From: Candidatus Peregrinibacteria bacterium CG10_big_fil_rev_8_21_14_0_10_49_10
GTDB taxonomy: Bacteria; Patescibacteriota; Gracilibacteria; Peribacterales; Peribacteraceae
Direction of reading: 5' to 3'
Assembly: GCA_002772545.1 (NCBI GenBank)
Contig: PFDR01000023.1
Location: forward strand, 654 to 64,653
DNA: 64,000 nucleotides
The first letter of the stretch is position 1; every line of letters starts with the position of its first letter. Both the position numbers and the translations under genes were made by a program. The notes below the pieces were generated by a model. It was given only the letters and a program-made list of their open reading frames with translations, was not told where the DNA came from and searched no databases. Shown here in pieces: positions 47,185 through 47,286 of this stretch.

Positions 47185-47286
47185 GCGCCCCGATAGGAAT
47201 TGAACCTATACATTATCATCCGTACGCAGCCTCGGTCAGCCCGAGGCTTTTGCTGATGACTGCTCTATCCATTGAGCTACGGGGCG
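47185..47286 (-). tRNA. tRNA-like gene with a 36-nt anticodon loop (29 extra nt including an 8-bp hairpin); possible pseudogene or non-canonical intron
   Basis: Minus-strand sequence: CGCCCCG TA GCTC AATGGATA GAGC A GTCAT [CAGCAAAAGCCTCGGGCTGACCGAGGCTGCGTACGG] ATGAT AATGT ATAGG TTCAATT CCTAT CGGGGCG C. The acceptor, D, anticodon-stem and T arms are all canonical. The inserted hairpin is AGCCTCGG/CCGAGGCT (47228-47248). No encoded CCA. Confidence 0.6.

Follow-up and report, generated by a model that had tools for sequence, protein, structure and literature searches.

Why would an insertion sequence (IS) carry a gene for a transfer RNA (tRNA) whose anticodon loop holds a hairpin? The question arises from a 102-nt gene on the minus strand (positions 47185 to 47286) of a 64,000-nt stretch of DNA, here called the window, from Candidatus Peregrinibacteria bacterium CG10_big_fil_rev_8_21_14_0_10_49_10 (assembly GCA_002772545.1, contig PFDR01000023.1, positions 654 to 64,653). 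The gene descends from tRNA-Arg(ACG), lies inside an element of the IS1595 family and recurs, still interrupted, in five further elements. Judged by comparison of these copies, it is a functional, vertically inherited RNA gene of the transposon; we know of no insertion sequences that carry tRNA-shaped RNAs of this kind. We suggest, tentatively, that its product is either a transposon-encoded, tRNA-shaped cofactor or regulator or a tRNA with a new, non-group-I short bacterial intron at position 32/33.

A tRNA-like RNA with an extended anticodon arm

All the parts of the cloverleaf that an initial annotation had read from the letters, including the 36-nt anticodon loop and its 8-bp hairpin, are present on the minus strand:

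47185-47286, minus: tRNA-Arg(ACG)-derived tRNA-like RNA gene, 102 nt including the discriminator C47185; CCA not encoded
47280-47286 / 47186-47192, minus: acceptor stem CGCCCCG / CGGGGCG
47262-47277, minus: D arm
minus: anticodon stem GUCAU(C)/(G)AUGAU
47193-47209, minus: T arm
47221-47254, minus: insert module inside the anticodon loop (AGCAAA strand, hairpin, GCGUACG strand)
47249-47254, minus: 5' single strand AGCAAA
47228-47248, minus: insert hairpin AGCCUCGG-GCUGA-CCGAGGCU, 8 bp with a GCUGA pentaloop
47221-47227, minus: 3' single strand GCGUACG
47224, 47223, 47222, 47221, minus: parental tRNA-Arg loop residues U33, A34, C35 and G36

Read from 47286, the 5' half is CGCCCCG-UA-GCUC-AAUGGAUA-GAGC-A-GUCAUC-AGCAAA-AGCCUCGG-GCUGA, and the 3' half, down to 47185, is CCGAGGCU-GCGUACG-GAUGAU-AAUGU-AUAGG-UUCAAUU-CCUAU-CGGGGCG-C. 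The long arm is made up of the anticodon stem and the module and contains a conserved 6x7-nt internal loop; the module runs from an A-rich 6-nt strand through a G+C-rich hairpin of 7 to 8 bp with a GNRA-like pentaloop to GCG and then the retained UACG(G/A)N. Over the six copies, the anticodon loop measures 36 to 38 nt and the insert 29 to 33 nt, typically about 31 nt.

With permissive filters, the Rfam tRNA model (RF00005) matches the gene at 47.7 bits (E = 1.7e-8; gathering score, 29 bits) and places a 35-nt insertion in its anticodon loop. Default ARAGORN and a filtered whole-window Rfam scan both miss it, and similar genes are therefore probably under-counted. The minimum free energy fold is a cloverleaf with the extended anticodon arm (-46 kcal/mol, z = -4.36), and none of 200 shuffled sequences was as stable. 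The hairpin sequence occurs once in the window, against an expectation of 0 by chance, and a covariance model of the RNA (R1) has a single match in the window, the 47185-47286 gene.

The carrier insertion sequence

The gene had been described as IS-borne, and the transposase, the terminal inverted repeats and the 8-bp target duplication bear this out:

46172-48234: IS1595-family element, 2,063 bp
46164-46171, no strand: left target-site duplication GGATGGAG, 8 bp; the same 8-mer lies directly outside both inverted repeats
48235-48242, no strand: right target-site duplication GGATGGAG, 8 bp
46172-46195, plus: left terminal inverted repeat GGCGACTATCCCCTTGACTATAGT, pairing with 48211-48234
48211-48234, minus: right terminal inverted repeat
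46220-47131, plus: IS1595-family DDE transposase gene, 303 aa (Pfam PF12762, DDE_Tnp_IS1595, E = 1.6e-41)

The bounds of the element follow from its inverted termini and from the perfect flanking duplication. All related elements conserve the 12-nt termini GGCGACTATCCC, which stand inverted at 46172 and 48234 in the window; nine of these elements, from other assemblies, each have an 8-bp duplication of their own. The transposase gene (plus) is followed by a 53-nt spacer with a hairpin, the tRNA-like gene (minus), and open reading frames (ORFs) of 126 and 77 aa (both minus). Transposase homologues are 60 to 80% identical, and the source-named ones among the closest are from Candidatus Peribacteria/Peregrinibacteria. 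The element has a lower G+C content than its surroundings, which are ordinary chromosome (ClpP, Tgt, MiaA, an ECF sigma factor and a SpoIIE-type phosphatase). A similarity search of plasmid and phage collections gave no match to the whole IS.

The interrupted gene is conserved and covaries

Among contigs encoding transposase homologues, the interrupted gene occurs in the same place and orientation in five further distinct elements (transposase identities are relative to that of the window):

L001: transposase 78%, metagenome contig
L003: transposase 78%, Peribacteria RIFCSPHIGHO2_02_FULL_53_20
L176: transposase 80%, metagenome contig
L013: transposase 67%, metagenome-assembled genome of an uncultured Peribacteria bacterium
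L173: transposase 64%, metagenome contig

In these five, the gene is convergent with the transposase gene and lies about 50 to 100 nt downstream of it. The target duplications and the insertion sites differ among the copies. Whole elements are 73 to 75% identical in DNA; the homology between elements begins at the left repeat and ends exactly where the RNA begins, at 47286, and the cargo beyond the RNA is unrelated among the copies except for P63C proteins common to L001 and L173. The initial annotation had proposed a search of other IS copies for the insert and had pointed out that copies with an uninterrupted tRNA would make this one a simple pseudogene. The insert was found in the five elements above, and the related elements examined contain no uninterrupted version.

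In an alignment of the six sequences (A1), 98.2% of the pair cells are standard pairs. Compensatory substitutions occur in all five helices, and nine pairs are changed on both sides, four of them among the seven pairs of the inserted hairpin. None of 500 shuffles matched the pairing and double changes of A1, sliding the partners left 33 to 45% pairing, and RNAalifold, unaided, gave the same structure. Read from the other strand, the five G-U pairs of A1 would be A-C, so the functional strand is that of the tRNA sense. The nucleotides of the tRNA tertiary interactions (U8, A14, G18G19, T54-Psi55-C56 and A58) are invariant. The single strands of the module are nearly so: AGCAAA is identical in four copies (AUAAAA in L001, AGCGAA in L013) and GCGUACG in five (ACGUACG in L001). 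The discriminator is C, C, A, A, C and C. A pattern scan of 185,579 species, with one genome each, found the motif within Peribacteria only in two genomes, both IS-linked; it is thus no lineage-wide trait of the native tRNA-Arg gene.

Descent from tRNA-Arg(ACG)

Which tRNA was interrupted? The D loop GGAUA (with A20) and the loop remnant UACG(G/A)N match bacterial tRNA-Arg(ACG), and UACG(G/A) and A20 are invariant in the six copies. The remnant resembles the tRNA-Arg loops of Bacillus subtilis and Escherichia coli, CUACGGA and CUACGAA. Deleting the insert in silico 5' of U33 yields tRNA-Arg(ACG) in all six copies, and we therefore read the gene as tRNA-Arg(ACG) with position 32 replaced by about 31 nt. 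The intron mode of ARAGORN, a check that the initial annotation had recommended, likewise reports tRNA-Arg(ACG), with a 30- to 31-nt intron, in four of the six. The initial annotation itself had considered removal at 37/38, which gives the anticodon GCA with A33 in the window; this is not the conserved reading, for the six copies then give Cys, Leu, Leu, Ser, Cys and Leu. Another ARAGORN call in the window, tRNA-Pro(CGG) with a long variable arm and an intron of 11 nt, was not reproduced in the other copies.

The RNA shares with bacterial tRNA-Arg(ACG) its acceptor, D (GGAUA, A20), variable and T arms and the loop residues U33-A34-C35-G36-R37. It differs in having a loop of 36 to 38 nt rather than 7, a C1-G72 pair, C or A as discriminator and no encoded CCA, and in that positions 32, 37 and 38 are consumed by pairing.

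Cargo genes, spacer hairpin and likely expression

The remaining features of the element lie on either side of the tRNA-like gene:

47161-47181, no strand: spacer hairpin CUCUAC-N9-GUAGAG, in the gap that separates the transposase stop codon from the 3' end of the tRNA-like RNA
47155-47181, no strand: possible pseudoknot of the spacer hairpin loop AAGGU with ACCUU at 47155-47159
47299-47679, minus: cargo ORF, 126 aa, with a weak HARE-HTH domain (Pfam PF05066, E = 1.3e-4, below the family cut-off)
47734-47761, minus: promoter-like site TTGACT-16-TAAAAT (consensus scan, 10/12; a pattern match only)
47896-48129, minus: second cargo ORF, 77 aa, no family match

The 126-aa ORF has no homologue in the other IS copies. 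It ends 12 nt upstream of the RNA 5' end on the same strand, and its stop codon leaves no room for a separate promoter in the window copy. In all six copies, unrelated cargo ORFs on the same strand stop close to the RNA 5' end, at distances from 10 nt within the RNA to 59 nt upstream of it. From this arrangement we infer, as the simplest reading, that the RNA and the cargo gene or genes upstream share a transcript of the cargo strand, and the site at 47734-47761 is a candidate promoter for a transcript of the 126-aa ORF and the tRNA-like RNA. The enzymes that process tRNA ends in the host would then release it: RNase P would cut at 47286, and the end near 47185 would be set by RNase Z, the downstream hairpin or both. 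CCA could be added post-transcriptionally.

The spacer hairpin is conserved in all six copies, with compensatory changes in L013 (AUCUGC/GCAGAU) and L003 (ACGGU/ACCGU), and may act as a bidirectional terminator lacking a U tract. A related element, L171, retains this hairpin beside a degraded remnant of the hairpin-type gene.

Sister elements carry other unusual tRNAs

We examined 13 loci with related transposases, and 11 have a tRNA-type gene. Sister elements that share the termini and have their own 8-bp duplications lack the hairpin-type RNA and carry other unusual tRNAs instead, all of which encode CCA:

L011, 2478-2579: type II tRNA, anticodon UUA, unusually long (about 30-nt) variable arm
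L170, 1900-2001: type II tRNA, anticodon UUA, unusually long (about 30-nt) variable arm
L171, 4541-4628: type II tRNA, anticodon UUA
L172, 4487-4574: type II tRNA, anticodon CUA
L009, 4551-4627: tRNA-Arg-like gene with the 8-nt loop CUACCGGA

The UUA and CUA tRNAs are, by their predicted anticodons, of the nonsense-suppressor type (ochre and amber). Recoding tRNAs borne by insertion sequences appear to be undescribed in bacteria of the candidate phyla radiation (CPR), and our literature search found nothing relevant on suppressor tRNAs in Peregrinibacteria.

Sister elements also have noncoding stretches, conserved and strongly structured, directly downstream of the transposase gene, in the slot that the tRNA-like gene occupies in the window. 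One, of about 117 nt, has nested and crossing helices (L170, 1609-1725; L172, 4006-4121), and a second is about 87 nt long (L011, 1919-2004; L171, 4049-4136). Neither has an Rfam match.

Is the insert spliced out?

The initial annotation had set a short-intron tRNA beside a tRNA-derived regulatory RNA, and the evidence leans, without deciding the matter, to an unspliced tRNA-like RNA. We hypothesize that the released RNA stays unspliced as a stable, tRNA-shaped scaffold and that the extended anticodon arm is its working part. The arm could offer a binding surface to a protein that reads tRNA-Arg anticodon loops (of the ArgRS or TadA type) or to an element-encoded protein, and the RNA would not decode codons.

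The unspliced form is favored because of the pairing register, the short stem that splicing would leave and the missing CCA. The conserved register occupies the would-be loop positions 32, 37 and 38, which have to be unpaired for decoding. Five of the six copies keep U-A at columns 37 and 75 (would-be U32 and A38). Three copies have an additional C after the stem, exactly those in which column 74, the base after UACG, is G; this state occurs in both transposase clades and differs between sister elements. An ideal spliced product would have an anticodon stem of 3 to 4 pairs, with a 27-43 mismatch, in every copy. None of the six copies encodes CCA, unlike the tRNA-Gln of the window, a Peribacteria tRNA-Val (L174) and all five tRNAs with normal 7- or 8-nt loops in the sister ISs. 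We also count the variable discriminator, the lack of a codon-usage rationale, the lack of a bulge-helix-bulge, group I or ribozyme match, and the restriction of the motif within Peribacteria to the two IS-linked genomes. Compared with a canonical decoding tRNA, the molecule has the cloverleaf and its tertiary nucleotides and lacks the 5-bp stem closing a 7-nt loop with U33 and a purine at 37.

Several points weigh against an unspliced scaffold. The covariation rests on six distinct sequences. One precise deletion still yields tRNA-Arg(ACG) in all of them, a property for which a pure scaffold has no obvious use. Decoder-like tRNAs, with suppressor anticodons and encoded CCA, are aboard sister elements, and this raises the prior for a decoder in the window too. 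Covariation of the unspliced fold would also be expected of a structure recognized by a splicing enzyme, and both the transcript and the protein partner of the scaffold are hypothetical.

A second account is a tRNA-Arg(ACG) with a new short (30- to 33-nt) bacterial intron at a noncanonical 31/32-33 site. The hairpin and internal loop would then be the recognition structure for an endonuclease-and-ligase or some other pathway, and the product would be an ordinary or regulated tRNA-Arg. Conserved "enigmatic" introns have been reported in Lak megaphage tRNAs (PMC6784885). The intron-mode predictions and the consistent precise deletion, with UACG(G/A) and A20 invariant, speak for this account, as do the decoding-type tRNAs aboard sister ISs and the proteobacterial tRNA-Arg-like genes, described below, with 35- to 40-nt hairpins directly after UU-NCU-A. 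It is opposed by the lack of a group I core (the insert is 29 to 33 nt long and has no Rfam intron match) and of a conserved bulge-helix-bulge, the lone candidate 4-bp helix CAGC/GCUG being lost in L001. The 3- to 4-pair spliced stem with its mismatch, the CCA that all neighboring genuine tRNAs encode and this gene does not, and the lack of a codon-usage rationale count here as well. Literature searches turned up no bacterial pathway for so short an intron, and we know of no route by which bacteria remove introns of this length. Because there are points on both sides of the splicing question, we hold the unspliced scaffold with about even confidence and regard the spliced tRNA as possible, though doubtful.

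Could the RNA simply mark a processing site? On this account, which we consider improbable, the gene would be a cis-acting processing or insulation mark that allows the cargo transcript to be cleaved by RNase P and RNase Z, with release of an RNA without function; it would set the 3' end of the cargo messenger RNA (mRNA) and block read-through antisense to the convergent transposase gene. The layout agrees with it: unrelated cargo ORFs always abut the RNA 5' end on the same strand, the RNA lies exactly between convergent transcription units with the conserved hairpin next to it, and other structured noncoding stretches take the same slot in sister ISs. However, RNase P and RNase Z require just the acceptor and T arms, and insulation gives no account of the covarying 7- to 8-bp hairpin and the near-invariant AGCAAA and GCGUACG in the anticodon arm.

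It is very improbable that the locus acts at the DNA level, for instance as a transposase-binding or recombination site at the boundary of cargo exchange, with an incidental RNA-like fold. The homology between elements does break exactly at the 5' edge, where the cargo differs, but covariation keeps RNA pairs, including the five G-U pairs, all the tertiary-interaction nucleotides of a tRNA are kept, and the sequence does not resemble the terminal repeats. Least credible of all is the disabled tRNA that the initial annotation had listed, a decaying pseudogene hit by a random palindromic insertion: the lack of a 7-nt loop, a canonically placed U33 and an encoded CCA would suit it, but it is contradicted by the comparative data, in which the interrupted gene persists down to 64% transposase identity with conserved loops and with compensatory changes in every helix, the inserted hairpin included, and in which no related element examined has an uninterrupted version.

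Other ideas were examined and rejected. AGA/AGG accounts for 13 of the 22 Arg codons in the transposase gene, and host genes use CGU/CGC/CGA for 61%; since the IS genes do not favor the Arg codons read by ACG (ICG), an extra tRNA-Arg(ACG) would be of no help to the IS. Antisense pairing of the loop (AGCAAAA) with transposase mRNA (UUUUGCU, 79 nt before the stop codon) is possible in four of the five elements searched; because the target is missing from L003 and the loop motif from L001, covariation does not support it. Finally, bulge-helix-bulge, k-turn, sarcin-ricin-like and hammerhead readings of the internal loop were compared by inspection, and none is conserved in the six copies.

Look-alikes in other genomes

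Insert-bearing genes of related appearance were also seen outside the IS1595 elements. A phage contig on which six of six neighboring genes match phage families carries a tRNA-Arg-like gene built like that of the window, with CGAAA, a 9-bp hairpin and CGUAC (L163, 876-984, minus). A viral contig carries a tRNA-like gene with a 12-bp anticodon arm (L092, 3560-3657, minus). The insert-bearing tRNA-Arg-like gene of an Arhodomonas isolate (L148, 760-879) adjoins ParD-like and zeta-toxin-like genes, assigned by N-terminal sequence motifs alone.

A tRNA-Arg-like cloverleaf of Rhodobacteraceae, Tropicimonas and Roseovarius has the loop UU-NCU-A followed by a 35- to 40-nt hairpin (GUACG...CGUAC). Loci of this type are:

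L156, 1962-2074
L157, 2844-2962
L160, 2571-2685
also L165, L167 and L168

These genes lie about 30 nt upstream of nrdJ, the gene for B12-dependent ribonucleotide reductase, and are syntenic with a DUF1489-like gene. They may be either short-insert tRNA-Arg(CCU/UCU) genes or tRNA-like leaders. We treat them as a separate phenomenon because the shared CGUACG was partly demanded by the search pattern.

The broad DNA pattern CGTACG...GGTTC hit more than 120 viral loci, and a model search of 100 identified overwhelmingly ordinary phage tRNAs; the pattern GGATAGA... matched tRNA-Ser genes in Sulfurimonas, Rickettsiales and Bacteroidota; and a module-specific pattern gave three chance matches in viral contigs.

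Other observations in the window

The initial annotation had noted a second tRNA-derived sequence with a hairpin insert at 54960-55025. It exists, but its insert is unrelated to the IS-borne one, and a link between the two is not supported. It is a truncated 5' fragment of the neighboring tRNA-Gln(UUG) gene (54852-54926, minus), which has partial copies of itself on both sides, across 54801-55025. Upstream, the first 22 nt of the gene are repeated in two pieces, TGGGGAGTAGCC (55014-55025) and AAGTGGTAAG (54960-54969), with a 44-nt imperfect hairpin (54970-55013) between them; the last 15 nt, CTCCTCCCCAGCCAT, recur at 54801-54815. The partial copies look like integration or excision scars; no integrase was found near this tRNA-Gln with duplicated ends.

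A 30-nt repeat between 40865 and 47311 falls in an unrelated membrane-protein ORF and was dismissed as a chance match. Two long ORFs are separated by a 38-nt imperfect inverted repeat of TTGGTTA-like units (7354-7444). Four diverged direct repeats of about 380 nt (55392-57221) within a 1,781-aa ORF correspond to its 11 DUF11 domains, an ordinary repeat protein.

Why the RNA matters

Insertion sequences are usually seen as a transposase and its ends, sometimes with protein-coding cargo. A conserved tRNA-derived RNA at the core of an IS, together with the suppressor-type tRNAs of sister elements, would mean that small CPR transposons interact with the translation or tRNA-processing machinery of their hosts. 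If the RNA is spliced, there would be an undiscovered short-intron pathway in bacteria; if it is not, it would be a natural counterpart of the engineered tRNA scaffold. If the RNA is a cofactor or regulator, no structured RNA partner of a DDE (IS1595) transposon would have been described before it, and the elements would form a CPR IS clade specialized in translation-altering tRNAs (ochre- and amber-suppressor tRNAs, the tRNA-Arg with the 8-nt loop and the hairpin form). With its 102 nt and six covarying homologues, the RNA is small, defined and directly testable.

Comparison with known systems

The IS1595 family includes passenger-gene subgroups in ISfinder (ISNwi1, ISSod11 and ISNha5). Our element resembles them in its DDE_Tnp_IS1595 transposase, terminal repeats and 8-bp duplication, and in the additional genes that lie to the right of the transposase, before the right end. 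It and its sister elements differ in their cargo of a conserved tRNA-like RNA or of suppressor-type tRNAs, for which we know of and found no report in these ISs; nor did the literature yield a description of any IS-borne tRNA-like RNA.

Bacterial tRNA genes interrupted by group I introns include those for tRNA-Leu (UAA), tRNA-fMet, tRNA-Arg (CCU) and tRNA-Ile, with introns of about 200 nt or more. The likeness is an intervening sequence in a bacterial anticodon loop; the difference is that group I introns have a P1-P9 catalytic core, whereas the insert here is a single hairpin of 29 to 33 nt. Intron_gpI has no match at E <= 10 in the window element or in its relatives. The introns spliced by EndA/TSEN in archaea and eukaryotes are closer in size, being short, hairpin-containing inserts in the anticodon arm, and those of archaea can occupy noncanonical sites. 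Their substrates have a 3-nt bulge, a 4-bp helix and a 3-nt bulge; the RNA has a 6x7-nt internal loop instead, and its one possible 4-bp helix, CAGC/GCUG, is missing from L001 and is in competition with the hairpin. The junction consistent across the copies is 31/32-33 rather than 37/38, and the host is a bacterium. No splicing endonuclease or RtcB-type ligase was found among the ORFs family-scanned in the 64-kb window, the only part of the genome covered.

The nearest published parallel is the conserved "enigmatic" introns in the tRNAs of Lak megaphage, a Prevotella phage of 540 kb (Devoto et al. 2019, PMC6784885), which was the only relevant report in our literature search on short bacterial tRNA introns and CPR tRNA inserts. 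In both cases, tRNA genes of a mobile element have conserved inserts and no known splicing route; the carrier here is a 2-kb IS, and the tRNAs are different.

We think that the RNA would work most like a tRNA scaffold with a foreign module. Such tRNA-like RNAs and scaffolds include YrlA, the tRNA-like domain of tmRNA, mascRNA and the engineered "tRNA scaffold" of Ponchon and Dardel. An Rfam scan of 46000-48500 at E <= 10 gave no match to YrlA or tmRNA; tRNA was the only match stronger than E = 1, beside four chance-level matches to unrelated families (E 1.4 to 6.9). Unlike YrlA, tmRNA and the others, the RNA is transposon-encoded and has normal acceptor-stem termini and a 31-nt hairpin module with an internal loop that retains UACG. 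It shares with the scaffolds a tRNA body that serves folding, end-processing and stability and an anticodon arm replaced or extended by another module.

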